From IMG/VR virus record IMGVR_UViG_3300032236_000718, positions 32,001-96,000 of that record: 64,000 nt of DNA, one strand, 5' to 3'. This document shows positions 6,052 through 33,622 of this stretch, in pieces. The notes beneath the pieces were generated by a model. The model was given only the letters and a program-made list of their open reading frames with translations. It did no database searches and was not told the DNA's origin. Position 1 is the stretch's first letter. Each line of letters starts with the position of its first letter. The translations under genes and the position numbers were made by a program. Source of the DNA: a virus.

Positions 6052-7059
6052 ATGACTGAACAATATAATGCTTTTGAAGAGAATGAAATTTCAAAGAACT
6101 CACAAGGCGGCACAGAGATCACTAAGCGATCAATTGCTGCCTTGGTTGATCCAGAGTTAGCCAGTAACTTCCAGGTTATTCCTGCACGAGTTCGTGAGCT
6201 ACAAGACGATAAGATCCGTGTATACTGGCTGCATGACTTGGCTGAAGATCCTGAGGCTAATCACTTACAGAATGCCAATAGCCGTGATCGCTTCCATAAG
6301 TTTGTGTTCTCGAGCAACTGGCAATACCAACAGTATGTCGATAAGCTTGGCTTTCCACAAACAGTAGATGCTATCGTACTTGAGACACCTATCGAACCAT
6401 TCGAGCGTGTAGAGAAGAGCAAGGATGAAGTGCGTCTTATCTATTTCTCAACACCACACCGTGGATTAGAGTTGTTAGTTCCTGTGTTTGAGGAACTCGC
6501 AAAGCATCACGATAACATTCATCTCGATGTTTTCTCTAGCTATAAGATCTATGGTTGGGAAGATGCAGATGAGAAGTACGAGGCACTATTCGATCGTATC
6601 CGCAATCATCCAAAGATGACTTATCATGGATTCCAGCCTAATGACGTATTGCGTGATGCTGTCAGCAAGGCACACGTCTTAGCATATCCATCTATTTGGG
6701 CTGAGACGAGCTGCCGCGTATTGATGGAGTCGATGAGTGCCGGTCTGTTGTGTGTGCATCCTAACTTCGGTGCATTGGCTGACACGTCTGGTGGACTGAC
6801 ATCAATGTATCCATATGACACTAATCCAAATACTCACGCCAATATCTTCTACGCACATCTCAATGAGGCAGTCAACATTGTCAACACTGAGAATGCGCAG
6901 AACTATCTTGGCTTTGTTAAGTCATACGCTGATGCACGATTCAATATTCAAAAGGTATCTAGCCAATGGAATGCAATGATGCAGGGTCTATTGAAGCAAT
7001 ACCCAGACGCAGAGTCTAGAGCATTGAAGAAGAAAGAGATGTTTAGGTATAAAGTCTAA
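6052..7059 (+). CDS. GT-B glycosyltransferase (GT4-like)
   Basis: GGTE, WLHD, YFSTPHRGL, YPSIWAETSCRVLMESMSAG (Ex7E motif). Confidence 0.88.
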   Translation: MTEQYNAFEENEISKNSQGGTEITKRSIAALVDPELASNFQVIPARVRELQDDKIRVYWLHDLAEDPEANHLQNANSRDRFHKFVFSSNWQYQQYVDKLGFPQTVDAIVLETPIEPFERVEKSKDEVRLIYFSTPHRGLELLVPVFEELAKHHDNIHLDVFSSYKIYGWEDADEKYEALFDRIRNHPKMTYHGFQPNDVLRDAVSKAHVLAYPSIWAETSCRVLMESMSAGLLCVHPNFGALADTSGGLTSMYPYDTNPNTHANIFYAHLNEAVNIVNTENAQNYLGFVKSYADARFNIQKVSSQWNAMMQGLLKQYPDAESRALKKKEMFRYKV

Positions 7060-16920: not shown

Positions 16921-17874
16921 ATGGCACACAATATCGAGATGGTCAACGGCAAGGCCCAGATGGCATACGTTGGCGAGACCCCATGGCACGGCCTTGGCAC
17001 ATCAGTCCCTGCAGACTTGACCCCAGCACAGATGCTGGAAGCAGCAGGCCTTGACTGGACTGTCCGCAAGGTTCCTGCCTTCGCTGAGGTTGCAGGCGAG
17101 AAGATCGCCGTGGGCAAGTCTGCCCTGGTACGGTCCTTCGACGACGCCCTCATCGACGTGGTCTCTGACGACTGGAACCCAGTGCAGAACCAGGAAGCGT
17201 TTGAGTTCTTCAACGACTTCGTGGCAGCTGGTGACATGGAGATGCACACTGCTGGATCCTTGCAGGATGGCAAGATCGTGTGGGGCATGGCCAAGATCAA
17301 GGACTCCTTTGAGCTCTTTGGTGGCGACAAGGTCGAGGGGCACCTGCTCTTCAGCAACTTCCACAAGTATGGCTACTCCACCGACGTTCGCTTTACCCCT
17401 ACCCGCGTGGTGTGCAACAACACCTTGGCTGTGGCTCTGGGTGAGGGCACCAACAACTTCTGCAAGATCTCTCACCGCAACAAGTTCGACGGTGACAACG
17501 TGAAGCAGATGCTGGGCATCGCCTCAGACAAGCTTGCCACCTACAAGGAGATGGCTGCTTACCTGGGTGCCAAGCGCTTCAATGACGAGTCGATCGTGGA
17601 GTACTTCACACGGGTGTTCCCTGTGACCTCCTCTGACTCCAAGAAAGAGAAGTCACGCAACGCTGAGTTGGCCATGCACGTCTTGCACGACCAGCCAGGG
17701 GCTAACTACGCAGAGGGTTCATGGTGGCAGGCATTCAACGCCGTCACGTACATGACGGACCACCTGATGGGTCGCAACTCAGACAGCCGCTTGTCGTCTG
17801 CCTGGTACGGCTACAACAAGGGCCTCAAGACAAAGGCCTTAGAGACTGCGATTGAGTTCGCAGAGGCAGCATAA
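16921..17874 (+). CDS. DUF932-family phage/plasmid protein
   Basis: PWHGLG, AGLDWTV, VQNQEAFEFF, TAGSL, TPTRVVCNNTL, GSWWQAFNAVT. Confidence 0.9.
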   Translation: MAHNIEMVNGKAQMAYVGETPWHGLGTSVPADLTPAQMLEAAGLDWTVRKVPAFAEVAGEKIAVGKSALVRSFDDALIDVVSDDWNPVQNQEAFEFFNDFVAAGDMEMHTAGSLQDGKIVWGMAKIKDSFELFGGDKVEGHLLFSNFHKYGYSTDVRFTPTRVVCNNTLAVALGEGTNNFCKISHRNKFDGDNVKQMLGIASDKLATYKEMAAYLGAKRFNDESIVEYFTRVFPVTSSDSKKEKSRNAELAMHVLHDQPGANYAEGSWWQAFNAVTYMTDHLMGRNSDSRLSSAWYGYNKGLKTKALETAIEFAEAA

Positions 17875-24706: not shown

Positions 24707-25813
24707 ATGGTCAGAGGCGTAAATCTAAAGGGTAAGCCCAAGCAGAAGGTAGCTCGTAAGACAAAGTCCGAGCAGTACCTCGTTAACTTCAAGTATCTAG
24801 GCGACGAGCCAGACTCCAACTTCAAGACAGTGTCCGATCAGATCCGTGCCTTTAACTGGTACAACGCCATGTGTGAGATGGATGAGGCACGCGCGTATCT
24901 TAACGACTACCTGACAATCACGAACCGTACAGACCTATCCAAGAAACTGGATAAGGTCCCAGACTCGTTCTTCCCTACCACAGCCGCGTGGATGGCACGT
25001 ATCGCGCAGCGCAAGAAGTCCTCCATCGAGCCGCACGAGTATGACAAGTTCATGGGCCTAATCGAGACCTCTATCTCTCACGTCAAGGAAGAGAAGGCAG
25101 AGACTAAGAAGGTCGACAAGCCAAACATTCAGGATCGTATTCGCGAGCGTGGTTACGACATCATCGGCGACATCGAGGAGATGATTGATAAGGGAGAGGC
25201 ATTCTCGCTATATGAGTGGCTCAAGAAAAATGAGATCCCTGCTATGTACGCTACAAAGATTGGCGACTACTATGGCGCTGTCTGGAAAGAGATCGTCGAT
25301 GCCCAGTCAGGAACTATCGACGGCTACGAGAAGTGGACAAAGGCTCAGCTCAAGGCACGAGTAGCTTTCTACCTACAACTCATCGACGACGCTGAGCGAT
25401 ATGGCGACAACACTAAGAAGACACGAGCACCTCGTAAGAAGAAAGCTCCGACTACAGAGAAGCTGCTCAAGAACTTCAAATATCAGAAAGAGAGCAATGA
25501 GCATAAGCTTACATCTATTAATCCGGAGTCTATCATTGGTGCAAAGACTCTTTGGACTTTTAATACGAGGTATAGCACTCTTAGTGTTTATAATGCTATG
25601 GGTCCCAGTGGTCTCAGTGTTCGCGGCACTACCCTTACTAATTTTGATGAGTCAAGTTCTAAGGCTATTCAAATAGGTCGTAAGACACAAGAGCGCATCG
25701 AGACTGTACTGAAAGGTGGCAAGATCGTAGTCAAGCGTCTCATTGAGGAGATGAAGAATGACGTTAATGGTCGCATCAATGAGAATACTATTCTATTAAA
25801 GGTGATCAAATGA
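24707..25813 (+). CDS. Conserved T4-like phage hypothetical protein
   Basis: AFNWYN, SINPESIIGA, FNTRY, GLSVRGTT, NGRINENTILLK. Confidence 0.75.
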   Translation: MVRGVNLKGKPKQKVARKTKSEQYLVNFKYLGDEPDSNFKTVSDQIRAFNWYNAMCEMDEARAYLNDYLTITNRTDLSKKLDKVPDSFFPTTAAWMARIAQRKKSSIEPHEYDKFMGLIETSISHVKEEKAETKKVDKPNIQDRIRERGYDIIGDIEEMIDKGEAFSLYEWLKKNEIPAMYATKIGDYYGAVWKEIVDAQSGTIDGYEKWTKAQLKARVAFYLQLIDDAERYGDNTKKTRAPRKKKAPTTEKLLKNFKYQKESNEHKLTSINPESIIGAKTLWTFNTRYSTLSVYNAMGPSGLSVRGTTLTNFDESSSKAIQIGRKTQERIETVLKGGKIVVKRLIEEMKNDVNGRINENTILLKVIK

Positions 25814-26244
25814 AGATACTAAATGAGTGTAGCTTTATCAAGCCAGAGAACATCGCTAAGATTGAGGAGCAATATAAGGCTACGTACGTGTTCGAGACGT
25901 GCCTGCGTGCACGTGAGGGCGGGTGGGCAAACTTCCCTGCAGCGGTCTTCTATCAAGAAGAGATTTATCCTGGTGGTTCGAACTACTTTGCCCTGTATTA
26001 CGACATGGATGGTAAACTATACATCACTGACGCCGGTCCCTCTATCATCGATGAGGAGTTTACAGGCCTAGAGGCTGAGGGCGAGGTAGTATACTCTCGC
26101 TATAGACACGACTATCGTGCAGGAAAGAATGGAGCATATGTAGACGGTGGACGAGATTATTTTAAGTATGGGGGCGATTCTTTTGATGATTACAATATTG
26201 TCAAGTTTAAAGTGGTAGACGATCACCTTGAAATTGTAAAATAA
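25810..26244 (+). CDS. Conserved phage hypothetical protein
   Basis: YSRYRHDY...VDGGRDY. Confidence 0.75.
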   Translation: MKILNECSFIKPENIAKIEEQYKATYVFETCLRAREGGWANFPAAVFYQEEIYPGGSNYFALYYDMDGKLYITDAGPSIIDEEFTGLEAEGEVVYSRYRHDYRAGKNGAYVDGGRDYFKYGGDSFDDYNIVKFKVVDDHLEIVK

Positions 26245-26247
26245 GTG

Positions 26248-26279
26248 TGTACAAAATATCACACTGTGTGTTATAAATA
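26248..26279 (+). promoter_or_regulatory. Composite early (TGTACA) and late (TATAAATA) promoter of tmRNA
   Basis: TGTACA 26248, TATAAATA 26272. Confidence 0.75.
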
Positions 26280-26284
26280 ATATA

Positions 26285-26598
26285 TGCTGTTGTTGATGAC
26301 GAAAGCAGAATAGACATACTGGACGCGGGGGCGGTACCCGCCCGGTCCACCATGGATACACAAACACCCTGCGAGATTGTTGCTTTAGGGTAGGGTGACA
26401 AGAAATAGAACAGCAACTAATACTTGTTTTATTTGTGTATCTTTGATGGGCCGGAAATTAGGATCGACAGGTGTGTTAAAAGCGGACCGAGACAGAAGCA
26501 TAAATAAGTTATCTGCAAACGATAATTCACCTATTGAAATGCGCCTAGCGGCATAATTTCTTGGGTTGGCAACTTACCTCGAAACAGAAAAGTTGCAC
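26285..26598 (+). ncRNA. ssrA: Two-piece (circularly permuted) tmRNA, alphaproteobacterial type; tag ANDNSPIEMRLAA
   Basis: Acceptor piece with T-arm GCGGG-GGCGGTA-CCCGC and CCGGTCC-A-CCA (ends 26352); coding piece starts GGGCCGG (26448), giving G3.U70; tag ORF 26515-26556; outer ends approximate. Confidence 0.95.
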
Positions 26599-26629
26599 TT
26601 CACACAAACAACAAACACAGGAGACTACA

Positions 26630-26845
26630 ATGACAAAAACACCTTTTGAGATTCGTTTTGATCTTCTCAACTATGCGATGAGCCAGCTAACTGGCGAGTA
26701 TTATGCAGCCTTGGAGCGCATACGAGAGTCAACACAAGAAAATTCACCAGCTCGAAACGATGCGGTAAATCAATTAAAATATCCTACTAAGAGTGACATC
26801 ATCCTTTTAGCAGAGGATTTAAAAGCCTTCATTGACAAAAAGTAA
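26630..26845 (+). CDS. Conserved phage hypothetical protein
   Basis: MTKTPFEIRFDLL; CA-rich leader and AGGAG. Confidence 0.75.
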   Translation: MTKTPFEIRFDLLNYAMSQLTGEYYAALERIRESTQENSPARNDAVNQLKYPTKSDIILLAEDLKAFIDKK

Positions 26846-26846
26846 T

Positions 26847-26923
26847 GGTCTCATAGCTCAGCTGTATAGAGCAGCCGCCTTCTAAGCGGCAGGTCGTTGG
26901 TTAGAGTCCAACTGAGATCACCA
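26847..26923 (+). tRNA. tRNA-Arg(TCT) with U19-A56 elbow
   Basis: GGTCTCA/TGAGATC acceptor, GCCGC-CTTCTAA-GCGGC, encoded CCA. Confidence 0.93.
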
Positions 26924-26939
26924 ATGTGGAGTTCTGGGT

Positions 26940-27110
26940 ATGAATGACTTGAGTAACTACTCCGTCGATGTCTTAAAGAAGACATGCTTTCAAGATGAGT
27001 TGTCAAGCTTAAGAGTTAAGTACCCAGAACCCGATAATTTAACACGCATCATTATGGATTACCTTGATCAGCGCATCAAGGAGATCGACAAAAAATATAA
27101 GATAAAGTGA
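26940..27110 (+). CDS. 56-aa hypothetical protein (not in ORF track)
   Basis: GGAG upstream; overlaps a long hairpin. Confidence 0.45.
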   Translation: MNDLSNYSVDVLKKTCFQDELSSLRVKYPEPDNLTRIIMDYLDQRIKEIDKKYKIK

Positions 27111-27121
27111 AAGGATACCTT

Positions 27122-28669
27122 ATGAAGTTCTTGAGCATTCGCGATGGACATGACTGCAATATCTCCTACTCTGATGGCAAGACCGTAAGGTACATCAAGT
27201 TCGAGCGCAACTATCAGAAGAAGCACTACAACTGGGGCCACGAGGAAGGCGACCAGATGGAGTTCTTACTTAAAGAAGCTCAGCGTATCTGGGGTATCGA
27301 CTTCCGCGATCTCAACGGCATCGCTCTAGTAAACGACAACGCTCATCATAAGCTCGATCGCGACATCGCTCTCAATGAGATGTATTACGTTATCGACAAA
27401 GAGAAGAACCCATTCTGGGCACAGTTCAACTGTCAAGTCTTTAAGATCGATCACCACTACGCACACATGATGAGTTGCTGGCCACTTGTAAATGTACAAG
27501 ACGTGCGCACTCACTTTGTCGTCGACGGTCTAGGTGACCATGCTCGTAACACCGCAGTGTTCCAAGATAACGATCTTGTCGACTTCATCGATCGCTCTCA
27601 GAACCTTGGCATCTCTGTCATTCTCGAGCACATCGGTCAAAACTATGGCATGAAGGGAATGGTTCTCGACATCTCTGGTAAGGTTATGGCTCTCAAGTCG
27701 TATCATCAGGTTCCGGACCAATTAGCATTCGACGCTATGAACCTTGCTAAGTATCTTGGCCTTCGTAACCTCAACCACTTCATTGAGATCTCTAAGCAGC
27801 TTCAAGGATATATTGATCCACTACCGAGCGAGCAACAGCAGCTAGTCAACCTAGCTTATCTCTTGCACGTGTTTGGTGAGGAGAAGATGCCACAGTACTT
27901 CCGTCAGTTCGCTAAGCGCGATGAGGTCATTACGTATTCTGGTGGCACTGCACAGAACACTGTCATCAACACAAAGATCAAGGAAGCTTTCCCTAACTCT
28001 CATATTCCTCCTCACTGCTACGATGGTGGTCTGTCGCTTGGCGGTGTTGAGTTCCTTCGCCAACTATTTCAACAGGATCTATTTGATAACTCTAACTTCC
28101 CTTACTGGCAGTCAGATGAGGCTCCTGCCTCTACTCCATCTGCTGCTACTATCGATAAAACTGCTGAGCTTCTAGCTCAGGGTAAGATCGTTGGTTGGTA
28201 TCAGGGCAATGGTGAGATTGGCCCTCGCGCACTCGGTAATCGCTCGATCTTGATGGATCCATCTATTAAGGATGGTAAAGACATCATCAATACAAAAGTA
28301 AAGAAGCGTGAACCATATCGACCTTTCGGAGCATCTGTTCTCGCGAAATATGCTGGACAACACTTCGATGTCGACTATGAGTCTCCCTACATGCTCCACG
28401 TAGTCAATTGCCTCACCGATGACTTCCCTTCAATTCAACATGTTGACAAGACCTGCCGTATCCAGACAGTCAATGAGGATTCACAGTACTCTGTCTATCA
28501 TTCCATCATCGATAAGTTCCGCGAGAAGACTGGCATTCCTATGCTACTCAATACGAGCTTGAACGTTGATGGTAAGCCTATTGCTGGCTACATGGAAGAT
28601 GCTAAGACCTTGTTTAATGACTCTGACCTAGATGCAGTAGTCATTGGTGACGATATTATGGTTAAATAA
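27122..28669 (+). CDS. NodU/CmcH-family O-carbamoyltransferase
   Basis: GHDCNI, FER, IDHHYAH, VDGLGD, GKVMAL, SGG, EIGPRALGNRSIL, VKKREPYRPF, HVDKTCRIQTV, LLNTSLN. Confidence 0.93.
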   Translation: MKFLSIRDGHDCNISYSDGKTVRYIKFERNYQKKHYNWGHEEGDQMEFLLKEAQRIWGIDFRDLNGIALVNDNAHHKLDRDIALNEMYYVIDKEKNPFWAQFNCQVFKIDHHYAHMMSCWPLVNVQDVRTHFVVDGLGDHARNTAVFQDNDLVDFIDRSQNLGISVILEHIGQNYGMKGMVLDISGKVMALKSYHQVPDQLAFDAMNLAKYLGLRNLNHFIEISKQLQGYIDPLPSEQQQLVNLAYLLHVFGEEKMPQYFRQFAKRDEVITYSGGTAQNTVINTKIKEAFPNSHIPPHCYDGGLSLGGVEFLRQLFQQDLFDNSNFPYWQSDEAPASTPSAATIDKTAELLAQGKIVGWYQGNGEIGPRALGNRSILMDPSIKDGKDIINTKVKKREPYRPFGASVLAKYAGQHFDVDYESPYMLHVVNCLTDDFPSIQHVDKTCRIQTVNEDSQYSVYHSIIDKFREKTGIPMLLNTSLNVDGKPIAGYMEDAKTLFNDSDLDAVVIGDDIMVK

Positions 28670-28673
28670 TATT

Positions 28674-28765
28674 GGGGGTGGGTGTTGGTACACAGGGAGG
28701 CCTTATAAGCCTTTCAGCGGCAGATTACCGTTCTCGAGGGGGTTCGAATCCCTCCACCCCTACCA
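28674..28765 (+). tRNA. Non-canonical (allo-tRNA-like) tRNA with UAU anticodon and long variable arm
   Basis: GGGGGTG/CACCCCT-A-CCA; D arm GTGT-TGGT-ACAC; 7-bp anticodon stem around CT-TAT-AA; V-arm AGCGG/CCGTT; TTCGAAT. Confidence 0.85.
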
Positions 28766-28782
28766 AATTCTAGGAGATAGTT

Positions 28783-29079
28783 ATGCCGACTATTACTACT
28801 GATGTTGATTTTGATCTAGACAACATCGATGACTATGAGCTCATAGATGAGCTAGAGAGTCGTGGATATGATGTTATTGAGAGAGGTAGATCAGATGAGG
28901 ACCTCATAGAGATTCTAGAAGGTCATGGATTTACAGTATACGGCACGGGTCATAAGCCAAACATTACAAGATACTATGTCGAAAAGCTCTATGATACATA
29001 CAAGACAATGTCTCCCGAGTTTTTTCAGAAAGAGCTAAAGAAATTCTTTCGTGAACATCTAGAAACGACAGATTACTAA
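28783..29079 (+). CDS. Acidic hypothetical protein with internal duplication
   Basis: DDYELIDELESRGYDV / SDEDLIEILEGHGFTV; AGGAG RBS. Confidence 0.7.
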   Translation: MPTITTDVDFDLDNIDDYELIDELESRGYDVIERGRSDEDLIEILEGHGFTVYGTGHKPNITRYYVEKLYDTYKTMSPEFFQKELKKFFREHLETTDY

Positions 29080-29082
29080 TTC

Positions 29083-29158
29083 GGGGCTATAGCTCAATGG
29101 TTAGAGCCGGCCGCTCATAACGGTCTGGTTCCAGGTTCGAGTCCTGGTGGCCCCACCA
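29083..29158 (+). tRNA. tRNA with CAT anticodon, most likely tRNA-Ile2 (lysidine)
   Basis: 76-nt cloverleaf; GGCCG-CTCATAA-CGGTC anticodon arm; paired 1-72 and no GGG/CCC initiator stem. Confidence 0.88.
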
Positions 29159-29174
29159 AAATTAAAGGAATGAC

Positions 29175-29402
29175 ATGAAGGTAAATTTCGATCTATCTAA
29201 GTTCATGGAAGATATTGACACCATGAGACGCAGAACCAATGTCGAGTACATTGATGCTGTTGTTTTCTGGTGTGAGAAGAATAATGTTGAGGTTGAGTAT
29301 GTTGCATCTGTCATTAAGAAAGATCCAGTCTTCAAATCAAAAATACTCATGGAGGCTGAGGAGCTTAACTTTATAAAGAAAACCGCTAGCTTACCTTTCT
29401 AG
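29175..29402 (+). CDS. 33: Late transcription co-activator gp33
   Basis: EYIDAVVFWCEKNNVEVE...KSKILMEAEELNFIKK..LP; near gene 32. Confidence 0.85.
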   Translation: MKVNFDLSKFMEDIDTMRRRTNVEYIDAVVFWCEKNNVEVEYVASVIKKDPVFKSKILMEAEELNFIKKTASLPF

Positions 29403-29431
29403 TGTACATATCTACAACAGCGTGATATATT
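29403..29431 (+). promoter_or_regulatory. Early promoter TGTACA-N17-TATATT
   Basis: TGTACA family. Confidence 0.65.
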
Positions 29432-29450
29432 AAGATTATAGGAGACATGC

Positions 29451-29903
29451 GTGTTGATAGAGATCAAGGGTAAGGCAAAACATCTTAAGAAAAAAGATAT
29501 ACGTAAAGCAGCTGAGCTGTATGCAGAGTATCTTTTATCTGAAAAGCTTAGCTCACAGATTGAGCTAAAGATTATCCTATCTAAGAAGCATCTAGCTAAA
29601 GGTATTGATGGATACTGTGACTGGATGGATAATAATAAGTCACCTCGCATATTTGAGATAGTAGTAAGACCTTCTCTAAAAGCTGAAGATCTATTGCAAC
29701 TACTAGCTCATGAGATGGTTCATCTTAAGCAGTTCGCTAAGAATGAATTATTTGACTACTCGCGTGGTTCGAAGTGTCGCTTTAATGGAAAGATCTATGA
29801 TCGCGACGAGATAGACTACTGGTTCCTTCCTTGGGAGATTGAGGCTTACGGGCGCGAGCGTGGGCTTTATATGAAATATCTCGACTCTAAGAAGGATAAA
29901 TAA
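29451..29903 (+). CDS. Zn metallopeptidase-like protein (HExxH)
   Basis: LAHEMVHLKQ, PWEIEAY. Confidence 0.8.
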   Translation: MLIEIKGKAKHLKKKDIRKAAELYAEYLLSEKLSSQIELKIILSKKHLAKGIDGYCDWMDNNKSPRIFEIVVRPSLKAEDLLQLLAHEMVHLKQFAKNELFDYSRGSKCRFNGKIYDRDEIDYWFLPWEIEAYGRERGLYMKYLDSKKDK

Positions 29904-30933: not shown

Positions 30934-33622
30934 ATTTCTGTAGTCCTGCGGACTCTTTTAGTCTATAAGCTAATGGGTAGTCCTTACCAGGGACAAATGC
31001 TATAGTGTCTGTGTCAGCCTTAGCTCCACTAGAATTCTGTAGAATTATAGGAAGAGCTGTATTCTTCTTACTCTGTTCATATGCTGCTGTCACTGCTGCG
31101 GCATTGCCCATGATGTTACCATCATTCTTATTAGAAGTTACTAGAGTAGAAGACTTATTACCGATATTATAGATGCTCTGGGCATAATTCGGATCAGTTG
31201 CATATCCGGCCGCGGCTATAGCTGTTGCAGCCTCAGCAAACGACTTGGCATTTAATACACCAGCGTATCTATTATTCTTAGTGATAAAGTCTACATATCC
31301 CTCGGCTGACTCCTCGAGACTATTATATGCAGCAAAGCTTTGTGACATGCTCGTGTAGCCGCCACCCGAGAACTCACTGGTCATTGCTGAGACACTTCCT
31401 GCGGTGCCCTGACCCTTTATTCCAAAGGCATTGTTGCCCACCATATGTCGACCATACCCAGTCTCCTGCGCGCTCTGTGCGGCGCCAAGCTGTGCTATGA
31501 TCTCAGGATTTGGTAGACCCTTAGCTTTTGCAGCAGCCAGCACTGAGTTATACATTTTATTGTACCACTCACCCTGGCTTCCATTAAATGGTGTGCTCTT
31601 GACATTTGTGTCCAGTGTTGGGTTACCATAACTTGCTCCCACGGACCCGCCCGTGAGGCCAGATAAATTACTAGACCCTGACATGTTTAGACTACTAGAT
31701 ATACCAGAGAATGGGTTACTAAATGAAGCAGTTGCTCCACCCGAGACTACACCTTCACTACTAGAGCCAACAACAGAAGTCTTCTCAGAGCTTCCCTCAC
31801 CATAGTCGAATATGAATGACTTAGCGTTGAACTCAATATTTTTAGCATTAAAGTTCAGGCTTGTTAGTCTCTCGCTCTCACTAGCAGACAGTGGTATTAT
31901 AAGTTCACGACCATGTAGAGTGACAGGGTATCCTTCCTCAGGACCATCAGATATACCACCGTCTCTGAAACCTTTAGTTATAGTATCGAGTAAAGTTCCT
32001 TCACCACTAAAGTCTGGTAAAAAGCTTCTAATGTCTTCTAGTAGACGCTGACCAGAAGTTTTATTTAAACGTTCTTTTAGTTGTGCAGCTCTCTCTTTGT
32101 TTATCTTATCATCTAGCGCGTTATTGTATATAAAGTCACGCATGTCGTTATAGTAGACATTTGTTTGACCTTTACTTGCTGCGCTAGCTCGTCTAAGCTT
32201 CTTAGCCTCGTCTGACTTTTCCCATTCCTCGACGGCCTTATAACCTTTATTTGCTTTATCAAATGATTGTCTAGCCAGAGTCTTAAACTCTTCAAACTCT
32301 TTTAAGAAATATTCCTTGAATATCTCTATCTTTGTATCATAGTCGGGATCTGTTAAAGGATCTGTTCCTCCGAACATATCCATATAGATCTCTCTAGCAG
32401 CTTCTCCAGCATCGATCGCTAGTGAGGCAAGTGTTCCTATGTAAGGCAACACTGCTGCACCTCCACTAATAACGTTAGCAAAAAATCCAGTAAAATCCCA
32501 TTTATTAAGTCGCTCTAGACCAAAAGCTACTCCAAATAATGCACCAATTCCAATAGGCATAGCAAGACTGGCTGCTTTAGCAACTTGTTTTTTAACTAAA
32601 ATAGTTAAAAGTGTCTTATCTAGTTTGGCCATGACTTCTTGTCTGGATTTTGCCTGTAATACTCTCTCTACAGTTTGTCTAGATAAGAATGCACCTTTTT
32701 TAGTGCTAGTCACACCAATATCTTTTAGTGCAGCTTCTTGCTCAGCAGTAATTCCACCCTTAACAACCCAACCACCACCAGTAGTATGCTCGATTGCACC
32801 AGATGCTATAAGCTCGGATGTAACTACTGGCTTACCTATAATCTTCTCTGCATCAGCTAGTGTCTGCTTAGCTCCATTTAACTTACGAGAAAGTCTTAGC
32901 GCCTCTGCCTTTGAAGCAGTCTCTTCTGCTACAGTGTCGAGTGCTCTCTGCTCTGATCTTGCTATGCGGGCTTCTCTTTTTGCTTCCTCAGCGCGTGCTC
33001 TCTCCTCGACAGCTTTAGTGATTCTAGTCTGAGCTTGTCTCTCTTCTTTTGCAGCTTGTCGAGATTCTTTGCCTGCAGCTTCTGCTTCAGCTCTTGACTT
33101 TTGTGCATCAGCGATCGCCTTCTCTGCATCAATCTCTGCCTTAGCTGCTTTAGCCTCTGCCTTTGAAGCATCACGCTCTGCCTTGAGAGCCTTTGACTCG
33201 GCTTCACTCTTGATAGATTTAGCCTCTGCCTCTATTCTTCTCTCTGTCTCTTTTAAAATCTTCTTAGCAGCATTCTCTTCTGCTCTCTGCTCTGCCATCT
33301 TAGCTAATTTATCACGTAACTTCTTCCCAAGCAAGTTTAGTAATGAGTCATCTCCACCTGCTTCCTCTCTTACACCATTTTGAAGTATGTTAACAGCCAT
33401 AGACTGCTTACTAACTATAACACGAAGAGTCTCATTCATGATTCTAAATGCAGCACCGTATTCTTGAGCACGGTTGTCCGCTCTAGCTATAGTTCTTCTG
33501 CTTTCTTGGAATGCTTGGTTATACTTCTCATTAACAGTATTCAGAGCTGCATCTAGTGAGCTTAGTGCGGTGCTCACGTCACTTAATGACTCATTCTCTG
33601 ACTGTGTTTTTAAATTATCCAT
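30932..33622 (-). CDS. Tape-measure-like/tail core protein with C-terminal GH73 (FlgJ-like) glucosaminidase
   Basis: Long Ala/Lys/Glu coiled coil, TM-like segment, GGISDGP..GY..LHGRE motif, AQSAQETGYG, NNAFGIKG, GYATDPNYA. Confidence 0.8.
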   Translation of the reverse strand: MDNLKTQSENESLSDVSTALSSLDAALNTVNEKYNQAFQESRRTIARADNRAQEYGAAFRIMNETLRVIVSKQSMAVNILQNGVREEAGGDDSLLNLLGKKLRDKLAKMAEQRAEENAAKKILKETERRIEAEAKSIKSEAESKALKAERDASKAEAKAAKAEIDAEKAIADAQKSRAEAEAAGKESRQAAKEERQAQTRITKAVEERARAEEAKREARIARSEQRALDTVAEETASKAEALRLSRKLNGAKQTLADAEKIIGKPVVTSELIASGAIEHTTGGGWVVKGGITAEQEAALKDIGVTSTKKGAFLSRQTVERVLQAKSRQEVMAKLDKTLLTILVKKQVAKAASLAMPIGIGALFGVAFGLERLNKWDFTGFFANVISGGAAVLPYIGTLASLAIDAGEAAREIYMDMFGGTDPLTDPDYDTKIEIFKEYFLKEFEEFKTLARQSFDKANKGYKAVEEWEKSDEAKKLRRASAASKGQTNVYYNDMRDFIYNNALDDKINKERAAQLKERLNKTSGQRLLEDIRSFLPDFSGEGTLLDTITKGFRDGGISDGPEEGYPVTLHGRELIIPLSASESERLTSLNFNAKNIEFNAKSFIFDYGEGSSEKTSVVGSSSEGVVSGGATASFSNPFSGISSSLNMSGSSNLSGLTGGSVGASYGNPTLDTNVKSTPFNGSQGEWYNKMYNSVLAAAKAKGLPNPEIIAQLGAAQSAQETGYGRHMVGNNAFGIKGQGTAGSVSAMTSEFSGGGYTSMSQSFAAYNSLEESAEGYVDFITKNNRYAGVLNAKSFAEAATAIAAAGYATDPNYAQSIYNIGNKSSTLVTSNKNDGNIMGNAAAVTAAYEQSKKNTALPIILQNSSGAKADTDTIAFVPGKDYPLAYRLKESAGLQK

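Follow-up and report, generated by a model that had tools for sequence, protein, structure and literature searches.

The phage tRNA(UAU) described here carries a long variable (V) arm whose seven-nucleotide loop has at its centre the triplet GAU, the anticodon of the major bacterial tRNA-Ile, and this arm is found almost exclusively on tRNAs with the anticodon UAU. The gene is real and conserved, and judging from its sequence it probably encodes a functional Ile tRNA for AUA codons. The GAU loop and its near-exclusive link to UAU form a strong and apparently undescribed pattern; they are the most informative feature of the molecule and were missing from a preliminary description of this DNA. 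We favour, with modest confidence, a reading in which the host IleRS charges the tRNA with Ile, AUA is read without TilS, and the GAU arm acts as a pseudo-anticodon that aids IleRS.

The window, i.e. the whole 64,000-nucleotide stretch that was analysed, spans bases 32001-96000 of an IMG/VR virus whose genome, at 164,428 bp, is roughly complete. The phage is T4-like (gp23, gp20, family B polymerase) and carries 28 tRNAs and a permuted alpha-type tmRNA. The tag encoded by the tmRNA is ANDNSPIEMRLAA; the same tag was found in contigs L009 and L010, and another one in L003. The phage tRNA-His (G000:C1:157791-157864, outside the window) has G1.U72 and A73 and lacks G-1, which is the non-canonical alphaproteobacterial tRNA-His type (PMC7590224), and the host is therefore probably an alphaproteobacterium. 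Neither IleRS nor TilS is encoded by the phage, which thus provides no dedicated partner for the tRNA. A promoter and terminator scan of positions 26000-29500 returned no more sites than shuffled sequence. The features of the region are collected in Table 1.

Table 1. Features of the tRNA(UAU) gene and its neighbours (window positions; columns are those of alignment A1)
Feature	Position	Strand	Basis or remark
Permuted alpha-type tmRNA	26259-26647	+	
tRNA-Arg(UCU), usual neighbour in related phages	26847-26923	+	ARAGORN and Rfam tRNA model
Carbamoyltransferase gene	27107-28669	+	Ends 4 nt upstream of tRNA(UAU)
tRNA(UAU) gene, 92 nt with encoded CCA	28674-28765	+	ARAGORN, tRNA-Sec covariance model, covariation (60 distinct relatives)
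Acceptor stem, 5' strand, 7 nt	28674-28680	+	Pairs with 28755-28761; G1.U72 wobble
Position 8, single unpaired linker, G here, A or U in relatives	28681	+	Pairs with column 81 in 5 of 60 only
D arm: 4-bp stem GUGU/ACAC, UGGU tetraloop with G18 G19	28682-28693	+	Covariation
Anticodon arm: 7-bp stem, loop CUUAUAA	28695-28715	+	97.4% paired; both-side changes in 6 of 7 pairs
Anticodon UAU, then A37 A38	28704-28706	+	Read from sequence
V-arm hairpin: 5-bp stem (A-U, G.U, C-G, G-C, G-C), 7-nt loop CAGAUUA	28716-28732	+	RNAalifold
GAU triplet, centre of V-arm loop (putative pseudo-anticodon)	28723-28725	+	Invariant in 176 distinct UAU tRNAs
Single-stranded V-region tail CUCGA, consensus CUYGA	28733-28737	+	Near-invariant in columns 60-64 (short-D-arm body)
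T arm: 5-bp stem, loop UUCGAAU	28738-28754	+	Both-side changes in 4 of 5 pairs
Acceptor 3' strand, discriminator A73 (28762), CCA (28763-28765)	28755-28765	+	Sequence
tRNA(CAU), elongator Met or Ile2(CAU)	29083-29158	+	318 nt downstream of tRNA(UAU)

ARAGORN reported a tRNA-Ile(tat) with exactly the boundaries of the gene and with its anticodon unusually early, at position 31. At this locus the Rfam tRNA model did not reach its gathering score and the best match at relaxed thresholds was tRNA-Sec, with 38.7 bits for a cut-off of 47, a score below threshold that fits the likeness to tRNA-Sec pointed out in the preliminary description. The single-sequence fold agrees with the cloverleaf, with a modest gain over shuffled sequence (z = -1.9), and leaves a single A between the D arm and the anticodon arm.

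Relatives were collected by four pattern scans, three on viral contigs and the fourth on bacterial genomes, which together yielded 315 loci containing 3308 tRNA genes. We defined the family by a UAU anticodon together with a V-arm hairpin made of a 4-5-bp stem and a 7-nt loop NNGAUNN. Its arm sits on two very different bodies: the short-D-arm body of the window copy, found in 96 loci that represent 60 distinct sequences and give a nearly gap-free alignment (A1), and a canonical cloverleaf with a normal D arm. Across the 60 distinct relatives a cloverleaf with a 7-bp acceptor stem and a 5-bp T stem (7/5) is 99.3% paired, a percentage inflated by the filter used in collection, which tolerated no more than one or two mismatches in any stem. 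Covariation is unaffected by this filter: both sides have changed in 22 of the 27 pairs, far more than in shuffled and slid controls, and RNAalifold independently returned the 7/5 fold plus a fifth V-stem pair. The seven acceptor pairs are 100% paired and each has changed on both sides somewhere in the family. All four D-stem pairs covary (e.g. GUGU/ACAC versus GACU/AGUC) around an invariant loop GG, the two outer pairs of the anticodon stem form in 59-60 of the 60 relatives, and the V-stem pair adjoining the loop is C-G in 45 and G-C in 15. U33, the anticodon, U36 and A37 are invariant and A38 is mostly kept, while A73 is found in all 61 sequences of the alignment. Most of the anatomy first described for this gene is thereby borne out, by the sequence itself and by its 60 distinct relatives: G at position 8 and the lack of A14, the 4-bp D stem with its UGGU loop, the 7-bp anticodon stem, the long V arm, seen both in covariation and by RNAalifold, and A73, to which an encoded CCA can be added. 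The fold is likewise kept in related phages.

The preliminary description had left open whether the acceptor and T stems fold as 7/5 or as 8/4, and had placed the tRNA in the allo-tRNA class; neither statement survives the alignment. The pair 49:65 (columns 65:81), which closes the 5-bp T stem, forms in 60 of 60 relatives with four pair types (GC 27, CG 22, UA 9, AU 2), whereas the competing pair 8:65 (columns 8:81), needed for an 8-bp acceptor stem, forms in only 5 of 60. The 8/4 fold is thus rejected, and the G8-C65 pair that can be drawn in the window copy is a coincidence. The allo-tRNA class is defined by a 12-bp acceptor branch split 8/4 or 9/3, with G73 or U73 in most members (PMC5389517); the present tRNA, with its 7/5 branch and A73, fails this defining test. 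That it is nonetheless a true allo-tRNA of that class is hardly credible, although the window copy can be drawn as 8/4, scores with the tRNA-Sec model and bears the commonest allo-tRNA anticodon, UAU (PMC5389517), since it is contradicted by the pairing, by the constant A73 and by the presence of the arm on fully canonical bodies as well.

Three further observations concern the body of the molecule. The first acceptor pair (28674 with 28761; columns 1:88) is a G.U wobble in 55 of the 60 distinct short-D-arm members, the cyanophage copy included, and resembles the alphaproteobacterial His identity pair. The tertiary core lacks its usual D-loop and position-9 bases, and the CUYGA tail may substitute for them there. 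A pairing between the V loop and the T loop (GAUU with AAUC), judged by eye, was rejected: the standard fold already occupies these bases of the T loop, whose sequence varies.

The window copy meets the arm pattern with the stem GCGG/CCGU and the loop CAGAUUA at 28717-28731. When the arm motif beside a T arm was searched with the anticodon left free, all 119 viral matches were UAU tRNAs; in bacterial genomes 72 of 74 were, the other two having the anticodon GAU. A separate scan, unselected for the arm, required of a tRNA only the anticodon loop CUUAUAA and a T arm of a common type, and gave 76 distinct UAU tRNAs: 36 with the hairpin, 33 with an ordinary short variable loop and 7 with neither (more than 80 nt long, without hairpin). 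In the 36 hairpins the stem takes 13 sequences, related by compensating changes, and the loop 8, among them CAGAUUA, UAGAUUU, UAGAUUG, CUGAUUA and CAGAUAA, and in all 36 GAU occupies positions 3-5 of the 7. Over all loci, 176 of 223 distinct UAU tRNAs carry a 4-bp stem with an NNGAUNN loop, in 15 stem and 9 loop variants. Among the 2624 other distinct tRNAs of the same loci the pattern matched 13 times, 11 of them by chance and mostly in the T-arm region, so that the module is present in only two, both with a GAU anticodon; only 1 of 533 Leu, Ser and Tyr tRNAs has a 7-nt loop with a central GAU. Nor did any other long-armed tRNA of the arrays (Thr, Asn, Lys and others) present its own anticodon in a 7-nt arm loop. 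The commonest arm loop, CAGAUUA, is identical at 5 of 7 positions to the usual Ile anticodon loop CUGAUAA, which is also that of the phage's own tRNA-Ile(GAU).

The two GAU-anticodon variants with a GAU arm, L147:7859-7950 (-) in a Pyrinomonadaceae MAG and L168:1236-1331 (-), are both from Acidobacteriota, and, an apparent U34-to-G change aside, each is typical of the family. Other long arms were seen as well: a second long-armed UAU type with an arm of about CCYU-RAACA-AGG and without GAU (L012:708-798 (-), L241, L308), further rare ones, and a tRNA-Thr(UGU) of 84-86 nt, present in phage arrays (L014:11611-11695 (-), also L045, L250 and L301), whose short extra variable-region hairpin has a 4- to 5-nt A-rich loop (GCAA, GAAA, AAAAG).

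Viral carriers of the family comprise many uncultured contigs of 5 to 480 kb and two cultured phages, which make the question raised here directly testable: Sinorhizobium phage Phosso, where the gene is annotated tRNA-Ile(tat), and Synechococcus phage S-SRM01 (L321:1501-1590, MW015081.1 about 32944-33033), whose copy has the stem CCGC/GCGG, the loop CAGAUUA and no encoded CCA. The S-SRM01 copy is absent from the GenBank features and the window gene is missed by the Rfam tRNA model, so the family also matters for annotation. Both cultured phages surfaced only with another family member as query; blastn of the window copy against the phage collection gave T-arm matches only. Bacterial carriers amount to about 80 species representatives, mostly Pyrinomonadaceae and other Blastocatellia, together with Acidithiobacillus, Roseovarius, Micavibrio, Bacilli, Clostridia and others. 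In bacteria the gene usually lies in dense tRNA arrays, with up to 38 tRNAs in 8 kb; one such array lies on an Acidithiobacillus chromosome (L166). A tilS gene scored above cut-off in all five bacterial carriers tested, indicating that tRNA(UAU) is an accessory AUA decoder and not a replacement of TilS and tRNA-Ile2(CAU).

No conserved protein gene travels with tRNA(UAU), and most copies lie in pure tRNA arrays. In L003, L007 and L013 the gene is directly adjoined by tRNA-Arg(UCU). The carbamoyltransferase encoded just upstream in the window belongs to a family related to t6A enzymes; a link to tRNA(UAU) was set aside, as the Arg(UCU) and UAU genes are adjacent without it in these three contigs and the carbamoyltransferase gene is itself devoid of ATA. 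The tRNA(CAU) and tRNA(UAU) genes are neighbours in many related contigs, and genes similar to the former are annotated tRNA-Met or tRNA-Ile in phages; it may be a lysidine-dependent Ile2, in which case the phage would possess three Ile decoders.

The codon that tRNA(UAU) would read is heavily used: in 127 long ORFs ATA occurs 24 times per 1000 codons and accounts for 35% of the Ile codons. Its meaning was assessed by examining the residues aligned to ATA in homologues, a check proposed in the preliminary description. Gp6 and the DNA polymerase, which together contain 37 ATA codons, were aligned with about 58 homologues each. Opposite ATA we counted 50% I, 17% V and 14% L (13.8%), a profile similar to that of ATT/ATC (58% I, 20% V, 7% L, more precisely 6.6%) and unlike those of Leu codons, which align to 65% L, or Ser codons, which align to 46% S. 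Several ATA sites have Ile in 57-59 of 59 homologues, and His was never found opposite ATA in these two alignments. We then compared codons between this phage and L322, a contig of a related phage, in 14 orthologous genes with 53-99% protein identity. Among the 243 ATA codons examined, 103 were kept, 70 were replaced by ATC or ATT, 22 by Val codons and 22 by Leu codons, and the reverse exchange, from ATT and ATC to ATA, was equally frequent. ATA is thus an ordinary Ile codon in this phage. The conserved Ile sites and the synonymous exchange give no support to a reassignment of AUA to Leu, Ser or His, and they contradict the missense insertion of Leu or Ser that the preliminary description had offered as one of three roles; the first of its options, a TilS-independent Ile decoder, is the one that fits the data.

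ATA use is very uneven (27107-28669, +, and also 6052-7059, 16921-17874 and 24707-25813). The carbamoyltransferase gene has none in 520 codons and several genes of the GC-richer block have 0-1, while baseplate and fibre genes have 30-60 each. The gene for gp23, the major capsid protein and the most highly expressed gene checked, contains no ATA in 466 codons; ATA therefore seems to be avoided in genes whose translation has to be fastest or most accurate, and AUA decoding may be slow or error-prone. This unevenness suggests a recent gain of some genes together with ATA avoidance in highly expressed ones.

The tRNA presents the features of bacterial UAU-type tRNA-Ile, namely UAU, U33, A37 (the t6A site) and A73. 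The bases with which the D loop contributes to editing by E. coli IleRS are absent from its 4-nt D loop, so that Val may be misincorporated. U34 is a poor IleRS determinant, the anticodon best recognised by IleRS being GAU. For the E. coli enzyme, tRNA-Ile2(UAU) is a 360-fold poorer substrate than its lysidine-modified form, and E. coli ribosomes that use an unmodified UAU tRNA fail to distinguish AUA from AUG (Met) (PMC3575796). Since the arm is nearly restricted to UAU tRNAs and its carriers belong to hosts of several phyla, it most simply answers a difficulty specific to UAU. From these features we infer charging with Ile and an interaction of the arm with IleRS; IleRS is favoured since the triplet conserved in the anticodon-like loop is that of the cognate Ile anticodon. 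In the model that we propose, tRNA(UAU) would supply a heavily used codon without lysidine formation by TilS; the GAU of the V arm, placed where an anticodon would be, would restore or boost recognition by IleRS, and the arm would behave as a portable identity element working in many hosts. Put in terms of two loops with separate tasks, UAU would decode AUA, and the non-decoding GAU would be read by IleRS or another factor specific for the Ile anticodon so as to secure Ile identity, a division of labour that we put forward more tentatively, as plausible but falling somewhat short of an even chance.

Some features stand against a direct reading of the arm by IleRS. Class I synthetases approach the tRNA with the variable region towards solvent, and an arm of 4-5 bp ends far from the anticodon-binding site of IleRS. 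Moreover, t6A is a strong IleRS determinant, and the arm loop cannot carry it because U, not A, occupies the position equivalent to 37. The arm is also not obligatory, as about 40% of unselected phage UAU tRNAs have an ordinary short variable loop. In the main rival explanation the tRNA would still be an Ile decoder of AUA, with an arm that acts apart from IleRS, either by recruiting or excluding a modification enzyme for U34 or the anticodon loop, or by an effect on the ribosome that keeps U34 from misreading AUG. The geometric objection is void for a separate factor, the linkage to UAU fits any need specific to UAU, and the separation of AUA from AUG is a second problem peculiar to this anticodon (PMC3575796). 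Such a role leaves unexplained why the 7-nt arm loop should display precisely the triplet of the cognate Ile anticodon, and no conserved protein gene accompanies the tRNA. We know of no modification enzyme or ribosomal site that recognises a hairpin of this kind, and we consider this explanation unlikely.

Less likely still, and indeed quite improbable, is that the RNA works outside translation, as a decoy, sponge or regulator, for instance against a toxin or nuclease attacking tRNA-Ile. A similar role was suggested by Mukai et al. for most allo-tRNA(UAU) species, six of which showed no suppressor activity in E. coli after conversion to CUA and two of which were toxic (PMC5389517); the unusual body, missed by the Rfam tRNA model, would also suit a decoy. 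However, inactivity is just what an anticodon-dependent identity, such as that recognised by IleRS, would predict for a CUA variant, and the features required in translation are all kept here (7/5 helix, G18G19, UUCGAAU T loop, U33, A37, A73 and CCA), under purifying selection with compensating changes. The gene moreover sits among ordinary tRNAs, next to one for a rare codon, Arg(UCU), in a phage with the ATA frequency given above.

A missense tRNA, charged with Leu, Ser or His through its long arm, A73 and G1.U72 and inserting that residue at AUA, is very improbable. Long variable arms are otherwise typical of Leu, Ser and Tyr tRNAs, and together with A73 such an arm could in principle attract LeuRS; a nematode class II tRNA(UAU) is charged with Leu in vitro (PMC3333845, PMC4300185); alphaproteobacterial His identity centres on G1.U72 and A73 (PMC7590224); and Leu is slightly commoner opposite ATA than opposite ATT/ATC. 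Against this, ATA behaves as an Ile codon both at conserved sites and in synonymous exchange, and more than 1000 codons would be hit. G73 is absent for SerRS, and the V stem has only 4-5 bp. E. coli LeuRS uses D-loop and tertiary elements, which a 4-nt D loop lacking A14 and A15 does not offer. For His, the anticodon is not GUG and the residue never appears opposite ATA.

How AUA (Ile) is kept apart from AUG (Met) is a classic question about the genetic code, and the known solutions consist either in a change of the wobble base (lysidine, agmatidine, pseudouridine) or in an adapted IleRS and ribosome. If the favoured reading is true, the solution would here be carried by the tRNA, as a new kind of identity element in which an extra arm displays the cognate anticodon. 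Synthetase recognition would then be naturally split from decoding, yielding an AUA decoder for any host without TilS or an adapted IleRS, and this would explain how AUA decoding is supplied across phyla by phages and tRNA arrays. Full-text literature searches, which are no proof of absence, returned no description of a natural V-arm pseudo-anticodon, and a 2023 review of tRNA identity does not mention one (PMC9976931). Most family members share their setting with the dense tRNA arrays of phages and bacterial integrative elements, for which our full-text searches gave no paper describing the GAU arm.

Ordinary class I tRNAs with the anticodon UAU exist in Mycoplasma mobile and in lactic acid bacteria. 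As in the phage family, the UAU of M. mobile tRNA-Ile reads AUA as Ile without lysidine; there, the adaptation lies in the cell's IleRS (Arg865) and ribosome and tilS has been lost (PMC3575796), whereas the phage family is mobile, its bacterial carriers keep tilS and the adaptation appears to lie in the extra arm of the tRNA. Lactic acid bacteria also have a bacterial tRNA-Ile(UAU), as stated in the titles of references listed in PMC9976931, and a 2026 paper on IleRS still calls bacterial UAU tRNAs rare cases (PMC13752280).

[quoted passage not shown] The D arm of allo-tRNAs is a long stem with a tetraloop; that of the phage tRNA has the UGGU tetraloop but a 4-bp stem, and its tRNA-Sec score lies below cut-off. 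The phage family further differs by its 7/5 branch, its A73 and its conserved V arm with the GAU loop, a loop unmentioned in the main text of PMC5389517. The tRNA-Sec-based search of that work would probably have picked up the phage family, part of which may be listed among its allo-tRNA(UAU) sequences without the GAU loop having been noted. The nematode nev-tRNA-Ile(UAU) shares the class II-like long arm and the UAU anticodon, but it is eukaryotic, with a Leu-type body and Leu charging in vitro (PMC3333845, PMC4300185), while ATA stays Ile in the phage. With class II tRNAs in general (Leu, Ser, Tyr) the phage tRNA has the long variable arm in common, but not their set of anticodons and identity elements.

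The closest parallel to the proposed function is an engineered one. V-arm pseudo-anticodons built on allo-tRNA scaffolds serve as a synthetase handle that mimics an anticodon arm and enhances aminoacylation; this artificial system concerns His and GUG and relies on a second anticodon-binding domain fused to HisRS (Mukai 2020, PMC7590224). The phage arm, by contrast, occurs naturally, is conserved and would depend on the unmodified IleRS of the host; if it works in this way, it would provide a natural template for synthetic-biology tRNAs whose identity is independent of the anticodon.
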